Positions 18,499 through 28,901 of a stretch of 33,119 nt of DNA are shown here, one piece after another. Both the position numbers and the translations under genes were made by a program. Within the stretch, counting starts at the first letter, position 1; every line of letters begins with the position of its first letter. Source of the DNA: an uncultured Candidatus Saccharibacteria bacterium (lineage in GTDB: Bacteria; Patescibacteriota; Saccharimonadia; Saccharimonadales; Saccharimonadaceae); the NCBI GenBank assembly GCA_964348805.1, contig CAYGDZ010000001.1:1-33119 (forward strand), read 5' to 3'. The notes beneath the pieces are model-generated. The model saw only the letters and a list, made by a program, of their open reading frames with translations. It was not told the origin of the DNA and searched no databases.

Positions 18499-19887
18499 AT
18501 GACACATCATAAAGGCTCGGTGAACGTGGGGGCGCTGAATCAGTGGCGAGGGTTTGCGTACGTCGCTATATTTTTGATTGGTTTGATACTAGCTGTTTTA
18601 TATGTTGCTAGTCTACCAAAAAACCCCAACTCTGACCCTGTGTCTAAAAATGTTTATTCGTCTGTAAAATCATTCGCAGCATCATATACAGTCAGCCGAA
18701 CATACACCTCGAAAAACAATATTGTTATTAATAATTTATGGCGACAAACGGAAGCTATATCAGGTGGTAACCAGTATGCTTGCGCGGTATCCAATGGCCA
18801 AGTCTTTTGCTGGGGGGACGGTGCTTATGGAAAGCTGGGCAACGGCAGTCTATCTCAACAGCTCAATCCGGTTGCCGTAACTCAAGCAGCCGGCATTTTA
18901 GCCGATAAAAAAGTATCCAACATTAGTACAGGCACTTCGCACACCTGTGCTGTTGCTAATGGCTTAGCCTTTTGCTGGGGCTACAATGGTAACGGCAGGT
19001 TAGGCAATGGTCTGGTAAGCGATAGTTCAAACCCAGTCACCGTAACTCAAGCAGCCGGCGTTTTAGCCGGCAAGACTGTTACTAATATTAGTGCTGGCGG
19101 CGATCATACCTGCGCCATAGCCAACGCACAAGCCTTTTGCTGGGGTTCTGGGTCGTCAGGTAGATTAGGCAATAGCAGTACTTCTCAGCAAGTCAACCCA
19201 GTGCCCGTAACTCAGTCAGCTGGTGTTTTAGCCGGAAAGTCAGTTACTGATATTAGCGCAGGCAGTGAACACACATGTGCTATAGCGAACGGGCAGGTGT
19301 ACTGCTGGGGGCTTAATAATTATGGTCAGCTAGGCACTGGTAATACCAACAACAGCCTAATACCAGTCCTTGTAACTCAAGCCGCTGGTGTTTTAGCCGG
19401 TAAGTCAGTTACCAGCATTAGTACGGGTATGAACTCTACCTGCGCTGTTGCTAACGGTCAAGCTTTTTGCTGGGGCTGGAATTATATTGGTCAGCTCGGT
19501 ACTGGTAATACTAACAACAGTCTAGTGCCAGTTCCCGTAACTCAAGCCGCCGGCGTTTTAGCCGGCAAAACTGTTACTAGTATTAGTACGAGGGCTATCC
19601 ATGTTTGCGCAGTTGCTAACGGTCAAGCTTTTTGCTGGGGTGAGGGTTCGGCCGGTAGGCTAGGTCACGGTGTCGCAAATAGCAGTTCAGCCCCCGTCGC
19701 TGTCAATGTTTCTGGTGTTTTTGCCGGCAAAACAGTTTCTAGTATTACGGCATCTACTCATAATTCGTGCGCTATAGCTAACGGTAGAGCCTACTGTTGG
19801 GGATGGAACAATTATGGACAGCTGGGCGAAGGTACCACAGTATTACAAAAGCTAGCGCCACATAGGGTTAATGATTCATATTATTAG
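18499..19887 (+). CDS. membrane-anchored RCC1-repeat (7-bladed beta-propeller-type) protein
   Basis: 462 aa. The N-terminal RGFAYVAIFLIGLILAVLYV hydrophobic segment is followed by about 7 repeats of the pattern HTCA(I/V)ANGQAFCWGxNxxGQLGxGxxxxxxxPVxV, characteristic of RCC1/ATS1 repeats. Confidence 0.85.
   Translation: MTHHKGSVNVGALNQWRGFAYVAIFLIGLILAVLYVASLPKNPNSDPVSKNVYSSVKSFAASYTVSRTYTSKNNIVINNLWRQTEAISGGNQYACAVSNGQVFCWGDGAYGKLGNGSLSQQLNPVAVTQAAGILADKKVSNISTGTSHTCAVANGLAFCWGYNGNGRLGNGLVSDSSNPVTVTQAAGVLAGKTVTNISAGGDHTCAIANAQAFCWGSGSSGRLGNSSTSQQVNPVPVTQSAGVLAGKSVTDISAGSEHTCAIANGQVYCWGLNNYGQLGTGNTNNSLIPVLVTQAAGVLAGKSVTSISTGMNSTCAVANGQAFCWGWNYIGQLGTGNTNNSLVPVPVTQAAGVLAGKTVTSISTRAIHVCAVANGQAFCWGEGSAGRLGHGVANSSSAPVAVNVSGVFAGKTVSSITASTHNSCAIANGRAYCWGWNNYGQLGEGTTVLQKLAPHRVNDSYY
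18877..19701 (+). repeat. tandem 165-nt (55-codon) DNA repeats encoding RCC1 blades, at least 5 well-conserved copies
   Basis: The string GTAACTCA(A/G)(G/T)C(A/C)GC(C/T)GG(C/T)(G/A)TTTTAGCCG recurs at 18877, 19042, 19207, 19372 and 19537, exactly 165 nt apart. More degenerate copies flank these. Confidence 0.85.
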
Positions 19888-19894
19888 GAAAAAA

Positions 19895-21556
19895 ATGAGT
19901 ATACACAATATTAAGAACGAGCATAAAATTAACCAACAAGGTTTTGTTTTGCCCGCAGTTCTAGTCTTGTCTATAGTACTACTAACACTAGGTTTGTCAG
20001 TCTTTCAGCTAACATCTACAATCGCACGCTCGCTGACAGATCAATATTGGCAAAAGGTTTCCAAGCAAGCTGCACAGGCAGGTGCATCATATATGTCAGC
20101 TTGTGTAGATCAAGGTCTGAGCGGTAGCACTTGGCCTATAAGTATTACGCAGAACGATACCTGCTTGGGCACTCCCTTGCCTACCCCCCAGCCTGAGATA
20201 TTTACAAATACAACTGATCCAAATCCTATACCAAACCCATATAGATCTAGTTTTACCATCTATAAGCCTACGGCGGGCGCCGACGGTATACAAAAAGCCA
20301 GGGTAGTGGGCACAGTCTCTATACTCAACACTACAGGAACCACGACTATTAGATCATATACAACCGAGATGACATCTATTATTAATGGCCCTATGCAGTC
20401 TACTAACCAGATCACAAGAGGTAGATACAATACATGCGCGGCAGCTGACGGCAAGGCACATTGCTGGGGGCTAAATGATTATGGCCAGCTAGGCACTGGT
20501 AATAACAATAACAGCAGTGTACCGATTGCCGTGGATACTAGCGGTGTATTAAGTGGCAAAGCAGTTACACAAATGTCAGGGAACTACTGGCATAACTGCG
20601 CTCTGGCCGATGGTCAAGCTTACTGTTGGGGCTTGAATACTAGCGGTCAGCTCGGCAATAATAGTACAACTAATAGCTCATCCCCTGTCCAAGTCAGCCT
20701 AACTGCTGGTTCAGGCTATTTGAATGGCAAGTCGGTGACTCAAGTTTCTGTTGGCCGTACCCATACCTGTGCCTTGGCTTCGGGCAGGGTTTATTGTTGG
20801 GGCTCAAATACTCACGGGCAGCTCGGTAACGGTAATAATACCAACAGCTCGTATCCAGTCGAAGTCAGTTTAACTGGTGGTTCAGGTTTCTTGAATAACA
20901 AACATGTAACACAGGTGGAAGTAGGTGCAGAACACAGCTGCGCCCTAGCCGAGGGTAGAGTTTACTGTTGGGGTTATAATGCAGACGGGCAGCTCGGTAA
21001 TAATAGCCTAGTATATACAAATGTACCTGTTGCAGTTGTTGCAACGGGCGGAGGGGCTGTACTCAACGGCAGGTTTGTCACCGAGATAGCAGGAGGCTAC
21101 TACCATACCTGTGCCCTCGCTGACGGACAGGCCTTTTGTTGGGGATTTAACGGTAGTGGACAGCTAGGTAACAACAATACTAATACTAGCTCAGTCCCCG
21201 TCGCAGTCAATATTGCGAGCGGTGCGTTGGTTGGTAAAAAAGTAGTGAGCTTGGCCCCAGGTCGCAACCACAGCTGTGTATTAGCAGATCAAGCTATTTG
21301 CTGGGGGTTGAATGACAATGGACAACTAGGTAACGGTAATAATACAAATAGTTTATTGCCCGTCAATGTCAGTACCAGCGGTGTTTTGAGTGGTAAAACT
21401 GTAACACAAGTTACAGGAGGCTACTATCACACTTGTGCTATTGCGGTTGGACAATCCTATTGCTGGGGCAACAATGCAGATGGGCAGCTCGGCAATAACA
21501 CTACAACCAGCTCCAATGTGCCTGTAAAAGCATTCGATTTCGCTTCAACAAATTAG
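19895..21556 (+). CDS. RCC1-repeat protein with PilX/prepilin-like N-terminal segment
   Basis: The track ORF begins at 19871 and overlaps the upstream gene. I prefer ATG 19895, after AGGA plus an A-run. The N-terminus QQGFVLPAVLVLSIVLLTLGLSVFQL...KQAAQAGASY resembles PilX-type minor-pilin N-termini. A ~150-aa Thr/Pro-rich region follows, then about 7 RCC1 blades (YCWGxNxxGQLGNxxxxxxxxPV). Confidence 0.85.
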   Translation: MSIHNIKNEHKINQQGFVLPAVLVLSIVLLTLGLSVFQLTSTIARSLTDQYWQKVSKQAAQAGASYMSACVDQGLSGSTWPISITQNDTCLGTPLPTPQPEIFTNTTDPNPIPNPYRSSFTIYKPTAGADGIQKARVVGTVSILNTTGTTTIRSYTTEMTSIINGPMQSTNQITRGRYNTCAAADGKAHCWGLNDYGQLGTGNNNNSSVPIAVDTSGVLSGKAVTQMSGNYWHNCALADGQAYCWGLNTSGQLGNNSTTNSSSPVQVSLTAGSGYLNGKSVTQVSVGRTHTCALASGRVYCWGSNTHGQLGNGNNTNSSYPVEVSLTGGSGFLNNKHVTQVEVGAEHSCALAEGRVYCWGYNADGQLGNNSLVYTNVPVAVVATGGGAVLNGRFVTEIAGGYYHTCALADGQAFCWGFNGSGQLGNNNTNTSSVPVAVNIASGALVGKKVVSLAPGRNHSCVLADQAICWGLNDNGQLGNGNNTNSLLPVNVSTSGVLSGKTVTQVTGGYYHTCAIAVGQSYCWGNNADGQLGNNTTTSSNVPVKAFDFASTN

Positions 21557-26313: not shown

Positions 26314-26371
26314 CAAAAAAAGAAGACCCTCTGGGTGACACCAAGTAAATGGCGTCACCCAGGTTGGGTCT
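26314..26371 (-). terminator. intrinsic terminator of mini-unit A (minus strand)
   Basis: A long imperfect hairpin spans 26324-26371 (AGACCC..TGGGTGAC..CC / GG..GTCACCCA..GGGTCT). On the minus strand it is followed by TCTTTTTTTGT (A-run 26315-26321 on plus). Confidence 0.7.
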
Positions 26372-26437
26372 GTTCCGTGCATCCTACTGGCCCTATGTCT
26401 TAGGATTCACGGAATGCGGCGTGTGCCGGCGGGTAGC

Positions 26438-26581
26438 TCAGCTCGAGTTGCACTCGCGGTGCAGACCTCCGATCAGGTTGTCGTTGGCGATGCCGTGCTC
26501 GCGGCCGGCGGTGTCGTCGTCGTGCTCCAATGCGATCTGGGTCAGGCTGCCGCTAAAAGCGGCGGGAGATCGTGCGTGCAT
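26438..26581 (-). CDS. 47-aa mini-ORF A (MHARSPAAFSGSLTQIALEHDDDTAGREHGIANDNLIGGLHRECNSS), GC-rich, unknown function
   Basis: It is below the track's length cutoff and I read it by hand. The SD GAGGTGA (26590-26584) lies just upstream, with 2 nt (AT) between GAGGTGA and the ATG (5 nt counted from the GAGG core). There is a promoter upstream and a terminator downstream on the same strand. By hand count it is about 65% GC, with 38 of 46 codons ending in G/C. Confidence 0.45.
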   Translation of the reverse strand: MHARSPAAFSGSLTQIALEHDDDTAGREHGIANDNLIGGLHRECNSS

Positions 26582-26632
26582 ATTCACCTCACGGTCGTAG
26601 TTTCAACCAGACGGTTATCTGGTATGAAAGTA

Positions 26633-26661
26633 ATACTATCACATACTAAAAAACTTGTCAA
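26633..26661 (-). promoter_or_regulatory. sigma70-type promoter TTGACA-17 nt-TAGTAT (with TG extension) for mini-unit A
   Basis: On the minus strand, TTGACA is at 26661-26656, followed by a 17-nt spacer and TGATAGTAT at 26641-26633. A second TTGACA lies at 26673-26668. The leader contains the hairpin ACCAGA/TCTGGT (26606-26623). Confidence 0.6.
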
Positions 26662-26687
26662 CAATTTTGTCAAATACGTTGGATATT

Positions 26688-26737
26688 AAAAAAGACCGCT
26701 CCCGGGTGATACCATAGGTATCAGCCCGGGATTGGTC
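26688..26737 (-). terminator. intrinsic terminator of mini-unit B (minus strand)
   Basis: Hairpin GACC..CCCGGGTGATACC (26694-26713) / GGTATCAGCCCGGG..GGTC (26718-26737). On the minus strand it is followed by TTTTTT (A-run 26688-26693). Its architecture is paralogous to the unit A terminator. Confidence 0.7.
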
Positions 26738-26762
26738 ATGTCTCACGTTGACCGGCTGTGGT

Positions 26763-26849
26763 CTACGCGACGCCGACGGATGGCTTGGTGTTGAGGAGGG
26801 CAACGGCGGTGCTCCCGCGCGACGCCGGTACCGGTACTGTGTTCTTCAT
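26763..26849 (-). CDS. 28-aa mini-ORF B (MKNTVPVPASRGSTAVALLNTKPSVGVA), GC-rich, unknown function
   Basis: Read by hand. The SD GAGGTGATC (9-nt match to the anti-SD) is at 26865-26857, 7 nt before ATG 26849. A terminator lies 26 nt after the stop. By hand count it is about 65% GC, with 22 of 27 codons ending in G/C. Confidence 0.4.
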   Translation of the reverse strand: MKNTVPVPASRGSTAVALLNTKPSVGVA

Positions 26850-26921
26850 GATCTGTGATCACCTCGTTCTAGGACCGCCATCAGCGGTCGGTTTTCGGAC
26901 TTACGCCCGATTACATCAGTA

Positions 26922-26930
26922 ATTGTAGCA
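26922..26930 (-). promoter_or_regulatory. extended -10 element TGCTACAAT for mini-unit B
   Basis: The minus strand reads TGCTACAAT. The ~65-nt leader contains the hairpin GACCGC/GCGGTC before the SD. Confidence 0.5.
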
Positions 26931-26974
26931 TATATATTTAAAAGTGGGTAAATTATTTTTGGACATGAAAATAG

Positions 26975-27267
26975 GCAAGAAAAACCTTTTACAACGGATG
27001 GCGCTATTGAAAGCACCATCCGTTGTACCAACAGTAAGGTGAAGTGATCACGACTACCAAGGCCTAGAGGCGTATGGTTCATGTGATATTCCAGACTGTG
27101 CCATTTGTGTGGTCTCGTCTTACAAAATACGGAGAGATTCAATGCGTTAGCCCATCCAGGACTGACTTGCGGTCTCTTGTTGGCCGTATCTGTATGCCTT
27201 TGTGTAAGTTTTTCTTGCCATTGTTTGTTTAAACTGCGTTGAGGAGCTTTGCAGCTCAACTCGAACT
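26975..27267 (-). ncRNA. candidate ~290-nt small RNA (mini-unit X): promoter- and terminator-delimited, no convincing ORF
   Basis: It is bounded by TTTACA-17-TACACT (27302-27274) and by the 11-bp hairpin ACAACGGATGG/CCATCCGTTGT (26991-27026). On the minus strand that hairpin is followed by AAAAGGTTTTTCTT. The only ATG ORF, MARKTYTKAYRYGQQETASQSWMG, lacks an SD. It matched no ncRNA family I could recognise by eye. Confidence 0.3.
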
Positions 27268-27273
27268 AACCTT

Positions 27274-27302
27274 AGTGTATTCCTAATGCTTACGCTTGTA
27301 AA
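27274..27302 (-). promoter_or_regulatory. sigma70-type promoter TTTACA-17 nt-TACACT for mini-unit X
   Basis: On the minus strand, TTTACA is at 27302-27297, followed by a 17-nt spacer and TACACT at 27279-27274. It lies immediately downstream of the unit C terminator. Confidence 0.45.
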
Positions 27303-27320
27303 CCCTTTTTTTGTGTTTTT

Positions 27321-27349
27321 TACAAAAAAACTACCTTTGCAGGTAGTTT
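27321..27349 (-). terminator. intrinsic terminator of mini-unit C (minus strand)
   Basis: The 9-bp stem AAACTACCT (27328-27336) / AGGTAGTTT (27341-27349) runs on the minus strand into a T-tract (A-run 27324-27330 on plus). Confidence 0.7.
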
Positions 27350-27676
27350 ACAGGTGTTTTCAAGAAAATTAGACAAGGAGAAGTGTCATATCGGGTGGTG
27401 TGTGGCCTAGATATGACCACACACCACCCGCTTCACATGTCACAGAATAACAACTCACGCTAGCAGACTCGTGTGTTTTGCCCGATAGGTAGTTGTGCCG
27501 GGCAACTATCGGACGCGTCATCTGTACATGTCGGATGAAGATTGCGTGACGAGTAATCTCGCTTCAATGAGATCGCTCGCCACGCGCTGGCCAGAGGTTT
27601 TTGCTGTTGCCCCTGTGCCACCTATGTTTATCGGCTGTCTGGATAGATGGCGTCCTCTGGCACACTGGTGGGTGAT
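27350..27676 (-). other. GC-rich, hairpin-dense untranslated segment between the Gly/Arg mini-ORF stop and its terminator (long 3' UTR or separate structured RNA)
   Basis: Helices read by eye: a 14-bp perfect stem at 27392-27430; CCGATAG/CTATCGG at 27482-27512; a three-helix stack GCGTG-CGAG-ATCTC/GAGAT-CTCG-CACGC at 27544-27585; and GCCAGAGG (27590-27597)/CCTCTGGC (27654-27661) closing a 56-nt domain. No ORF here has an SD. Confidence 0.35.
27392..27430. repeat. perfect 14-bp inverted repeat (CGGGTGGTGTGTGG / CCACACACCACCCG) with 11-nt loop
   Basis: The arms at 27392-27405 and 27417-27430 are exact reverse complements. There is no adjacent U-tract on either strand. Confidence 0.8.
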
Positions 27677-27877
27677 TTAAATCCGCCCTTCACCTCCGCG
27701 CCACTTCTTCGAGCCACAACCGAGCGTTGAACGCTCTTGTTGGCCACCACCTCCGCCCGAGCGGCGATCAAAAGCGCCACCACCACCGCGTGTGCGTGAA
27801 GGTCCGGCACCACCTCCGATTTGCTCTTGGGCGCTACCACGACCACCGCAGCGGTTACTGCCACGGATCCCGATCAT
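27677..27877 (-). CDS. 66-aa glycine/arginine-rich (RGG-type) small protein
   Basis: Track ORF. The SD AAGGAGGAAG (27890-27881) lies 3 nt before ATG 27877, with 6 nt between the AAGGAGG core and the ATG. By hand count it has 23 Gly and 10 Arg in 66 residues. The Gly codons are mostly GGT, matching local usage. An overlapping 78-aa frame lacks an SD. Confidence 0.55.
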   Translation of the reverse strand: MIGIRGSNRCGGRGSAQEQIGGGAGPSRTRGGGGAFDRRSGGGGGQQERSTLGCGSKKWRGGEGRI

Positions 27878-27974
27878 ACGCTTCCTCCTTGTCTGTGCAA
27901 TTTGAGAACGAACGCCCTCAATATCACTTACTATATTAATACTCCGCAGGGTAATAGTCTATAGTAGATCCTAT

Positions 27975-28901
27975 ATGATATTGGGAATCGACGAAGTAGG
28001 GCGCGGTGCATGGGCAGGACCATTAGTTGTTGGTGCGGTTGTGTTGGGTGGCGCACAGATTGATGGGCTAACAGATAGCAAGAAGCTGACGGCCAAGCGC
28101 CGAAGGGTATTGGCAGGCGAGATCAAGGAAAGAGCAATTGCTATAGGCTTGGGCTGGGTATCGGCCGAAACAATTGATCGTATTGGTTTGTCCGAAGCCT
28201 TGAGAATGGCGACTAGGTTGGCTGTCAAAAATATTGATGTTGATTACGATGAAATCATAATAGACGGAACAATTAACCTATTAGACGATTCCAGAGTCAC
28301 AACCATAAAACAGGCGGACCTGTTAGTTCCCAGTGTTTCCGCTGCCAGTATAATCGCCAAGGTTGCTCGTGACTATTATATGAGCAACGTTATACACAAA
28401 GATTACCCACAATATGGCTTTGATAGACATGTAGGATATGGTACAGCAGTCCACTCTGGTGCATTAATTACCCACGGACCGATTTATCTGCATAGGCTCA
28501 GTTTTACACCTGTCAAAAAAGCATTAGGGTTAGAAATCTCAGTACCCCAAAAGAAAGACAAAGTTACGGCGACTACTGGTCGCAAGGCCGAAGCAGTCGC
28601 AGCTGATTACATGATGGATCTGGGTTACGAGATTTTAGAACAAAACTGGCGAACAAAGATGTGTGAAATCGATATCGTGGCAAAAAAAGACGATGCAGTA
28701 TATCTGGTAGAAGTAAAATACCGCAAAAAAGCGACCAAAGGCGATGGCCTGAGTGCGATTACCCCGGCCAAGCTAAAACAAATGAAATTCGCGGCCCGCA
28801 TGTGGCAACATTGGCGTGATTTTAGGGGTGATATACGTCTGAGCGTGATATCGATGAGCGGTCAGCCGCCTCAAGTTGATGAATTTTTAGAGAATATATG
28901 A
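27975..28901 (+). CDS. rnhB: RNase HII fused to a YraN/UPF0102-type endonuclease-like domain
   Basis: The N-terminal ~190 aa carry GIDEVGRGAWAGPLVVGAV, DSKKLT and ASIIAKVARD (RNase HII). The C-terminal ~105 aa carry GRKAEAVAADYMMDLGYEILEQNWRTKMCEIDIVAKKDDAVYLVEVKYRK (YraN family pattern). It is a single uninterrupted 308-codon frame. Confidence 0.88.
   Translation: MILGIDEVGRGAWAGPLVVGAVVLGGAQIDGLTDSKKLTAKRRRVLAGEIKERAIAIGLGWVSAETIDRIGLSEALRMATRLAVKNIDVDYDEIIIDGTINLLDDSRVTTIKQADLLVPSVSAASIIAKVARDYYMSNVIHKDYPQYGFDRHVGYGTAVHSGALITHGPIYLHRLSFTPVKKALGLEISVPQKKDKVTATTGRKAEAVAADYMMDLGYEILEQNWRTKMCEIDIVAKKDDAVYLVEVKYRKKATKGDGLSAITPAKLKQMKFAARMWQHWRDFRGDIRLSVISMSGQPPQVDEFLENI

Follow-up and report, generated by a model that had tools for sequence, protein, structure and literature searches.

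The window analysed here, a 33,119-nucleotide (nt) stretch of contig CAYGDZ010000001.1, comes from the core chromosome of a Saccharibacterium and has a GC content of 44.9%. Its genes are housekeeping genes (GAPDH, a pentose-phosphate set, UvrB, GatCAB, DnaE, PilB, malic enzyme, L19, RNase HII-UPF0102, DinB and PepN). Between rplS (L19; 25731-26258, plus strand) and rnhB (RNase HII-UPF0102; 27975-28901, plus strand) lies a spacer of ~1.7 kb that holds no long open reading frame (ORF), and all features of interest within it are on the minus strand. Among them are two mini-ORFs with a striking base composition: ORF A (26581..26438, minus strand; 47 aa, MHARSPAAFSGSLTQIALEHDDDTAGREHGIANDNLIGGLHRECNSS) has a GC content of 0.646, and ORF B (26849..26763, minus strand; 28 aa, MKNTVPVPASRGSTAVALLNTKPSVGVA) one of 0.655. 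The two units to which they belong are arranged head-to-tail, on the strand opposite to the neighbouring genes. We consider it rather probable that ORF A and ORF B are paralogues in a native, lineage-specific family of small genes (28-60 aa), organised as autonomous units and maintaining a composition discordant with that of the genome. An assembly chimera was ruled out, as three independent assemblies give identical DNA.

GC at the first, second and third codon positions (GC1, GC2 and GC3) is 0.65, 0.50 and 0.83 in ORF A and 0.63, 0.59 and 0.81 in ORF B, with 38/46 and 22/27 codons ending in G or C. These figures agree exactly with the hand counts in the original prediction, a note made from the letters alone that had drawn attention to the two ORFs as foreign-looking. 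It had also seen that neighbouring genes prefer A/T-ending codons, and the 27 native genes of the window indeed have GC3 values of 0.23-0.47. When the codon-usage comparison it proposed was run against these genes, ORF A fell outside all 1752 native chunks of 46 codons (mean GC3 0.418, standard deviation 0.078, maximum 0.674; z=5.3), and ORF B reached z=4.0 against native chunks of 27 codons. The GC3 expected from the amino acids of the peptides and native codon usage is 0.41, which ORF A exceeds with z=+5.7 and ORF B with z=+4.4. The excess is mainly a bias for C at the third position (C3), which accounts for 0.63 of codons in ORF A and 0.52 in ORF B against 0.23 in native genes, whereas G is hardly raised (0.20-0.30 against 0.19). 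Over the mini-ORFs, the fraction of the preferred codon is 0.97 for GAC, 0.78 for GGC, 0.72 for CGC, 0.56 for ACC, 0.83 for AAG and 1.0 for CAG; leucine is encoded by CTC (0.63) rather than CTG (0.21), and GTA stands at 0.28. The second position is also affected, with a GC2 of 0.50-0.70 against 0.27-0.53 in native genes.

The enrichment is not limited to the coding frames. GC is 0.47-0.54 in the 5' untranslated regions (UTRs) and 0.52-0.73 in the 3' UTRs and terminators, and falls to 0.18-0.24 in the promoters; promoters and inter-unit spacers together have 18-26% GC. The elevation thus spans the whole predicted transcript and ends at the promoter and at the T-run. The earlier view that GC drops at the ORF borders therefore needs to be moved outwards, to the transcript borders.

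Each ORF appears to form an autonomous monocistronic unit with a predicted promoter, a 5' hairpin, a Shine-Dalgarno sequence (SD), the ORF, a structured 3' UTR and a nested terminator. The unit borders are predicted from consensus and conservation, and the predicted transcripts are ~310 nt (unit A) and ~230 nt (unit B). For comparison, related loci (numbered with the prefix L) were gathered via L19 (80 Saccharibacteria loci), via graded RNase HII homologues for the closer ones and, for one, via a family-profile match.

The predicted promoter of unit A (26632..26674, minus strand) has tandem TTGACA boxes. The -35 element TTGACA (26661-26656) is separated by a 17-nt spacer from the -10 element TAGTAT (26638-26633), which follows a TG, and a consensus scan scored it at 10/12 plus TG. 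A promoter profile built from nine relatives matches it with E=1.9e-11, with all its matches confined to the clade, and the promoter 19-mer TTGACAAGTTTTTTAGTAT is common to L003, L084, L086, L089 and L094. Directly after the inferred start, both the minimum free energy (MFE) and the centroid folds place a 5' stem-loop (26607..26622, minus strand; CCAGAUAACCGUCUGG); relatives have a hairpin in the same place with another sequence (CAGGUAACCACCUGG in L088, GCAGACGAACGUCUGU in L089). By sequence reading, the SD of ORF A is GAGGTGA (26584..26590, minus strand), 2 nt upstream of the ATG and 5 nt from it when counted from the GAGG core. Downstream of the ORF, the same two kinds of fold predict a 3' UTR hairpin (26373..26414, minus strand; UUCCGUGAAUCCUA ... 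UAGGAUGCACGGAA), at the position of which relatives carry a longer stem (TTCGCGAATC.. / ..GATTCGCGGAA, loop CUCGGGAGGG). The unit would end in a nested intrinsic terminator (26315..26375, minus strand) with an outer GACCC/GGGUC stem, an inner GGGUGACGCC/GGUGUCACCC stem and a T-run, matched by a terminator profile with E=3e-14. In the consensus fold, 6/19 pairs keep their pairing through two-sided changes, and five of these are in the terminator stem.

Unit B follows the same plan. Its putative promoter (26922..26952, minus strand), read from the sequence, consists of TTTACC and an extended -10 element, TGCTACAAT, at 26930-26922; it is kept as TTTACCC...TGATACAAT in L084 and L086 and was missed by the strict consensus scan. 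The 5' stem-loop predicted by folding (26895..26910, minus strand; UCGGGCGUAAGUCCGA) shows one compensated pair (UA to CG) in L084 and L086, and a similar hairpin is present in the units of L087 and L094. ORF B has an extended SD, GAGGTGATC (26857..26865, minus strand), identical in L084 and L086 and complementary to the textbook 16S rRNA 3' end GAUCACCUC. The predicted nested terminator of unit B (26688..26739, minus strand; GACC..CCCGGGCUGAUACC/GGUAUCACCCGGG..GGUC, then a T-run), found by folding, gives a profile match of E=1.6e-8 and is homologous to that of unit A. Common to both units is the design GACC..CCNGGG-hairpin-CCCNGG..GGTC followed by the T-run.

Most members of the family described below are likewise preceded by SDs complementary over up to 9 nt to the textbook 16S rRNA 3' end (GAUCACCUCC; there is no rRNA gene in the window), and AGGTGATC also stands upstream of the ORFs in L087 and L089. 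The SDs of ORF A and ORF B are longer than any upstream of native window genes. The original prediction took GAGGTGA to be a signal general to the window, which does not hold up: one further gene alone, that for malic enzyme, carries it, and an SD is absent from many native genes. At the native starts 8048, 10388, 22100, 27975 and 30574, a TAnnnT element resembling a -10 box lies 5-12 nt before the ATG, again with no SD, and many native genes probably have leaderless or near-leaderless mRNAs.

A search of related genomes, as the original prediction had proposed, recovered homologous units in ~10 Saccharibacteria at the same rplS-rnhB spot, encoding peptides of 28-60 aa. In the close clade, where rnhB is 74-89% identical, every genome has a GC-rich island in this place with small minus-strand ORFs. 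All members found lie between rplS and rnhB and in Saccharibacteria only, and the promoter and terminator profiles, run over 100 loci, matched in this clade only and always in the rplS-rnhB spacer. The peptides share the N-terminal motif MK..P(L)AAARG(S/T)(T/P), sometimes ..PLGG, and have mosaic C-terminal blocks (IGGLHREC, GGIAGFNPD). The L084 and L086 peptides (MKNTAPVPASRGSTAG...; 36 aa) are orthologues of ORF B. Other members are found in L092 (MKIEIEMALAAARGTPLG...QIGGLHRECGSS), L088 (MKHLHSLAAARGTPLG...ATGGIAGFNPD), L091 (MKNSVIPLAALAAS..HDDPLGG...SGGIAGFNPD, with a similar peptide in L095) and L087 (MKFSIAPPLAAARGST...). The C-terminal half of ORF A aligns collinearly, and in the same frame, with the L092 peptide (AGRQRGLAHTDQIGGLHRECGSS), at ~60/73 nt by hand count. 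On the strength of the shared N-terminal motif, the mosaic blocks and this collinearity, we assign ORF A and ORF B to one family. Their duplication is older than the divergence of the window lineage from those of L084 and L086. The paralogues have different promoters and, in a DNA alignment of four units, little similarity in the ORF bodies, yet both have a GC3 above 0.8.

A family-profile search of 5.8 billion proteins returned four small proteins only, all from this clade and one of them an NCBI hypothetical protein. Scanning metagenomes with the promoter 19-mer gave 120 loci, among which L110, on a JGI contig, was the sole true member; in the other 119, neither a family peptide nor a GC-rich ORF follows, so that they were read as chance AT-rich matches. 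The peptides of the family are hydrophilic, with an abundance of Gly, Ala, Ser, Thr, Asp, Asn and His, and HDD or HxD motifs are frequent. No hydrophobic stretch was found in them, and they thus lack the membrane-spanning peptide that marks a type I toxin. Against Pfam and NCBIfam they gave nothing at E<=1 save one chance match (E=0.14), and we found no description of such a family in the literature. This is an undescribed micro-gene family specific to one Saccharibacteria clade.

ORF A and ORF B are probably translated. The original prediction had argued this from the third-position skew in the frame set by the SD and ATG, and the argument is borne out by a permutation test of 3-nt periodicity in that frame (p=0.003 for ORF A, 0.05 for ORF B and 0.002 for the L003 ORF), by the SDs, by in-frame indels and by the shared peptide motifs. 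An SD is clear or moderate in ~12/13 members inspected (our own reading; L095 and L110 are outside this set), in the form of GAGGTGA, AGGTGATC, GGAGG or AAGGAG, and the start codon is ATG, with GTG in one member. Indels between close orthologues measure 24, 3 and 3 nt, all in frame. Between ORF B and its L084/L086 orthologues, the first 15 codons carry three synonymous changes and one replacement, and the sole indel is the one of 24 nt.

Constraint on RNA structure had been put forward as the alternative to a peptide, and for the ORF bodies it found no support. They fold no better than shuffled sequences (z=+0.98 for ORF A, +1.17 for ORF B and +0.09 for a third ORF). In the ORF B trio, the compensatory, two-sided changes that would point to an RNA were looked for inside the ORF and none was found, with covariation confined to the UTR hairpins and terminators. 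Full transcripts, in contrast, fold better than shuffles (z=-4.7 for A and -4.0 for B). With Rfam, the window had no match at gathering score, and relaxing the E-value brought up none in the ORF regions; the sub-threshold matches are terminator-like and lie elsewhere in the spacer only.

The compositional bias is a property of the whole family. GC3 is 0.65-0.90 in 15/15 members, with z=3.2-7.6 above the native-usage expectation, and 0.80-0.90 in 13/15. To put this on a time scale, the proportions of differing synonymous (pS) and replacement (pN) sites can be set against those of the flanking genes. For rnhB and rplS, pS is 0.53-0.81 (synonymous divergence, dS, 0.9 to >2, saturated) and pN 0.02-0.17, and for the mini-ORFs of the same genome pairs pS is 0.13-0.34 and pN 0.08-0.20, so that pS is 2-4x below that of the flanks. 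Relative to the neutral rate of the flanks (dS ~1), replacement sites have changed at ~0.2 and synonymous sites at ~0.4. As both classes lie below the neutral rate, both are constrained, and the constraint on synonymous sites inflates pN/pS. With GC3 raised in 15/15 members despite a flank dS of 0.9 to >2, the bias is maintained in situ and is not that of a fading import. Pure structure constraint in the ORF bodies is thus not supported, but synonymous sites are under constraint at the nucleotide level.

GC is raised transcript-wide up to the promoter and T-run, and synonymous sites are conserved. Our best guess is that selection acts on the mRNA as such, be it on composition, stability or a second role at the RNA level, and in this way preserves the C-ending codons. 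Several other causes were considered and set aside. Translational selection for optimal codons is unlikely, given that rplS has a GC3 of 0.36 and that CTC, the main Leu codon of the family, is the second-rarest one in native genes, at 6%. A Rho utilisation (rut) site was set aside, as the surplus of C over G is modest (0.36-0.42 against 0.24-0.30; L089, with C at 0.27 and G at 0.32, is an exception) and there are fewer than 100 nt to an intrinsic terminator. Mutagenesis of the diversity-generating retroelement type was discarded because the window has no reverse transcriptase. When the C-rich ORFs were tested for pairing with the G-rich mRNA of a neighbouring ORF, ORF C, the sole target tried, complementarity did not go beyond shuffles (z -1.7 to +0.9).

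A number of observations weigh against a translated family under codon-level selection. Substitutions are spread near-evenly over codon positions, for example 10/9/13 between L091 and L095, and pN/pS within the ORFs is 0.56-1.25, which taken alone resembles non-coding evolution. The GGIAGFNPD and IGGLHREC blocks are conserved in nucleotides as well, with near-zero synonymous change. It would not be surprising if, at this composition, chance alone left a frame of such length open. L001 (640-960, minus strand) and L002 (6600-6920, minus strand), which are nearest by L19 yet have an rnhB only 72-75% identical, carry a similar scaffold next to rplS with no ORF: a promoter of consensus type followed by a 5' hairpin and, at the other end, a nested terminator, all below the profile threshold, around an AT-normal body of ~250 nt. 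Since that body is AT-normal and ORF-less, the body of the cassette must be replaceable. The low pS could come from recent exchange of cassettes between lineages instead of selection; the variants are incongruent with the flanks, and the tail of ORF A in the window matches L092, not L084 or L086. Finally, strong codon selection is unexpected in a symbiont with a small population.

Best placed among the competing explanations, although we hold it to be unlikely, is that the units are non-coding small RNAs whose open frames are incidental to a C-rich, U-poor sequence selected as RNA. The even substitutions, the pN/pS near 1, the blocks without synonymous change and the ORF-less scaffold of L001 and L002 all count in its favour, as do the GC enrichment over the whole transcript rather than the ORF alone, the better-than-shuffled folding of full transcripts and the covarying UTR hairpins and terminators. 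It also draws on a palindrome, GCCGCG-GCA-CGCGGC, in the N-terminal motif, which in ORF A reads GCCGCT-TTT-AGCGGC despite the other amino acids. A non-coding RNA, however, gives no reason for a 3-nt periodicity of C in the SD+ATG frame of three independently diverged ORFs, nor for a start codon and SD kept in nearly all members or for indels in frame; moreover, structure in the ORF bodies is slightly below that of shuffles, covariation inside the ORF is nil and Rfam has no match. The palindrome itself lies in the codons of the N-terminal motif (26545-26565, minus strand), where it encodes AAARG, the ORF A version being AAFSG. In L086A it appears as CGCGG-CAT-CCGCG, displaced by a few bases, and the independent changes are too few to call covariation.

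The main alternative cause for the C-ending bias itself is biased gene conversion. Here the genes would be real and their composition would stem from GC-biased conversion at a recombination hot spot, with the peptides as near-neutral passengers and C-ending codons not selected in themselves, which we judge improbable. Saccharibacteria are naturally competent. The spacer is hypervariable, with a length of ~70-1700 nt across the phylum, the peptides form a mosaic of variants that does not follow the flank phylogeny, and GC is up at all codon positions, GC2 included, which suggests pressure on amino-acid content. Yet conversion tracts should ignore transcript borders, and the promoters and inter-unit spacers have stayed AT-rich. 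Conversion is strand-symmetric, whereas C exceeds G by ~2-3:1 on the sense strand, although codon constraints explain part of this, and synonymous divergence is lowered, not raised.

The original prediction had proposed that the ORFs were shaped in a high-GC background and might derive from a host. In its explicit form this would make them recent imports whose high-GC donor was the actinobacterial host or its phage, with GC3 as an unameliorated relic, and we regard it as very unlikely. The mini-ORF codon usage does resemble that of high-GC actinobacterial genomes in general terms; the pattern GC1>GC2<GC3 is one commonly seen in coding DNA of high GC, and small ORFs are under-annotated, so that protein databases might lack a donor gene. 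The searches, which did not include a six-frame search of all high-GC genomes, nonetheless brought up no homologue outside the clade. For ORF A, a word-indexed search of the 5.8 billion proteins gave no candidate, look-up of the exact products (47-aa and 49-aa forms) found neither on record, and JGI metagenomes and IMG/VR, scanned with peptide patterns, yielded none; the family profile had no member outside this Saccharibacteria clade among the same 5.8 billion proteins. Phages, many of them high-GC actinophages, and plasmids gave no match by blastn with a 661-nt region of the window or by tblastn with ORF A and a second member, P0125. ORF B, whose 28 aa are too few for several of these tools, was never queried alone and entered these searches through the family profile and within the 661-nt blastn query. 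A phmmer search with ORF A against 1.84 billion representatives returned two matches (E 5e-6 and 2e-4) to repeat proteins of 1614 and 2275 aa, which were rejected because their scores were summed over 4-10 repeats of a short Asp-rich stretch.

The site argues against import as well. It is fixed and syntenic in ~10 genomes with native promoter and terminator while flank dS runs from 0.9 to >2, and a passive relic would have decayed to a GC3 of ~0.6-0.75, yet 13/15 members stand above this. The preference for CTC over CTG and the use of GTA are not actinobacterial-like, and there are no mobility genes nearby; among the window genes (33 kb) we found no mobility gene, reverse transcriptase, enzyme for peptides that are ribosomally synthesised and then post-translationally modified (RiPPs) or exporter. 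With no homologue outside the clade in these searches, one syntenic site and the bias present in all 15 members, we take the two ORFs to be native to one Saccharibacteria clade and reject the host-derived reading as unsupported. A putative host-interaction cassette at a dedicated variable locus, in which the recoding is selected as the transcripts or peptides act on or inside the high-GC host of the epibiont, seems to us highly improbable; examples would be an exported RNA that survives, pairs or is translated in the actinobacterial cytoplasm, or host-directed effector peptides in an arms race.

That the real genes are instead the plus-strand ORFs called by pipelines (26414-26689, 91 aa; 26349-26600, 83 aa) deserves next to no credence: the ENA record does carry a gene-caller annotation of the 91-aa ORF and similar antisense ORFs are called in L084 and L092, but such frames are the expected shadow of NNC-rich codons, with a frame-matched antisense GC1 that would be 0.83, implausible for a protein, and GC2>GC1 in the 83-aa frame, they extend into the AT-rich promoter of unit A, they have no conserved start, no convincing SD that we could see and no Pfam family on record, and they are not conserved across relatives because the A bodies differ. 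The antisense calls in the window, L084 and L092 are an annotation artefact of NNC-rich codons. The 91-aa shadow ORF is annotated in place of ORF A both in the window (26414-26689, plus strand) and in L081 (3684-3959).

The spacer holds further small units. Next to rnhB is a third one with a small ORF (27677-27877, minus strand), which would encode a Gly/Arg-rich peptide of 66 aa (MIGIRGSNRCGGRG...) and has a native-like GC3 of 0.48. Its SD region, AGACAAGGAGGAAGCG (27880-27895), is complementary to CACUUCUCCUUGUCU (27373-27388), which lies ~490 nt downstream, just ahead of a terminator (27349-27328, minus strand). The pairing covaries, as GGAGAGGC/GCCUUCUCC in L089, GGAGAAUGC/GCAUUCUCC in L092 and GGAGUAAA/UUUACUCC in L003, and suggests either long-range sequestration of the SD or an anti-SD small RNA (sRNA) derived from the 3' end. 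The best conserved part of the spacer is 27296-27675 (minus strand), with 86% identity to L084 and L086 and a hairpin, GCGGGUGGUGUGUGG...CCACACACCACCCG, at ~27390-27432. Rfam has no family for it, the sole match being sub-threshold, RNAI-like and on hairpins; this part may form a structured domain at the 3' end or be a non-coding RNA in its own right. A fourth unit (26990-27302, minus strand) combines a promoter-like TTTACA-17-TACACT (27302-27274) and a strong covarying terminator (27027-26990) with no convincing ORF. Its body is poorly conserved, and the motif CAAACA..GACAAGAAAAA and the terminator alone are common to L001, L002, L003, L088 and L092.

Over the window, a search for tRNA and tmRNA genes gave none. 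The flanking L19 (25731-26258) carries an Ala/Glu/Lys-rich C-terminal tail of ~55 aa, and RNase HII (27975-28901) is fused to a UPF0102 (YraN-like) nuclease domain; tail and fusion are both kept across the fetched Saccharibacteria. Two adjoining genes for RCC1-repeat proteins of 462 and 561 aa (18499-21556) have an unusually high GC2 of 0.50-0.53.

Returning to the native family that we favour, each unit would begin with a sigma-70 promoter close to consensus and a 5' stem-loop, continue with a long SD, an ORF that is C-rich with little structure and a 3' UTR that is structured, end in a nested terminator, and sit in a variable rplS-rnhB spacer that also houses other small units. Synonymous sites would be held at C-ending codons, or G-ending ones for Lys, Glu and Gln, and the amino-acid sequence would be under moderate constraint, mainly in the N-terminal MK..P(L)AAARG(S/T)(T/P) segment and a few C-terminal blocks. 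We infer that the units yield abundant, stable mRNAs; the products would be low-complexity micro-proteins with a conserved leader and a variable body, and the C-ending bias would be kept by selection at the mRNA level, not by ordinary translational selection.

Saccharibacteria and other bacteria of the Candidate Phyla Radiation (CPR) have tiny genomes, and to our knowledge almost nothing is known of CPR small genes and RNAs. The family described here is one that pipelines annotate on the wrong strand. Its strongly atypical codon usage is not the mark of a recent transfer but a trait that outlasts the time to saturation of neutral sites, which makes it a counter-example to the notion that atypical GC3 means recent transfer and calls for caution in composition-based calls of horizontal gene transfer. 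It also offers a concrete system for asking what selects synonymous sites in a small-population symbiont, whether mRNA stability, an RNA-level function or biased conversion. As the spacer holds further small units, one with a covarying long-range anti-SD pairing, the rplS-rnhB locus may be a regulatory island of small RNAs and small proteins.

Small RNAs with a dual function, which also encode a micro-protein, include SR1/SR1P of B. subtilis, RNAIII/delta-haemolysin of S. aureus and SgrS/SgrT of E. coli. The units resemble these in their predicted stand-alone transcript of ~230-310 nt with its own promoter, strong intrinsic terminator and structured ends, and in having one SD-led ORF of a few dozen codons outside any operon. 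In the one pairing test made, with the ORF C mRNA, the mini-ORF units stayed within shuffles, and unlike the known cases they are confined to one Saccharibacteria clade. We know of no description of persistent, genome-discordant C-ending codon usage in the known dual-function sRNAs.

A conserved N-terminus joined to a variable C-terminus is also the hallmark of leader-core precursors, such as those of RiPPs (prochlorosins) and the double-glycine bacteriocins and pheromones (ComC). The mini-ORF peptides are similarly small, with a conserved N-terminal segment (MK..PLAAARGS/T, sometimes ..PLGG) and a fast-changing body, and the family has several paralogues or alleles distributed incongruently with the host-genome phylogeny. 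In contrast to such precursors, they have no maturation enzyme, leader peptidase, C39 peptidase-ABC exporter or immunity gene in the 33-kb window and no precursor-family match in Pfam or NCBIfam, and Cys is almost absent; the conserved segment is only ~8-15 residues long, and some C-terminal blocks are conserved too.

The Breaker-lab pipeline for intergenic regions (IGRs) looks at GC-rich intergenic regions of AT-rich genomes and placed 3/4714 categorised IGRs as candidates for small ORFs (PMC11109978). The mini-ORFs likewise came to light as an island of high GC within a long intergenic region, and differ in that we saw no codon-usage anomaly of their type described in that account (PMC11109978). 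With atypical, horizontally acquired genes, lastly, they share a GC and GC3 far above the genome norm and a narrow phyletic range. Such genes nevertheless make a poor match for units that have no donor homologue and no mobility genes, that occupy a fixed site with native signals, and whose bias outlasts saturating neutral divergence.

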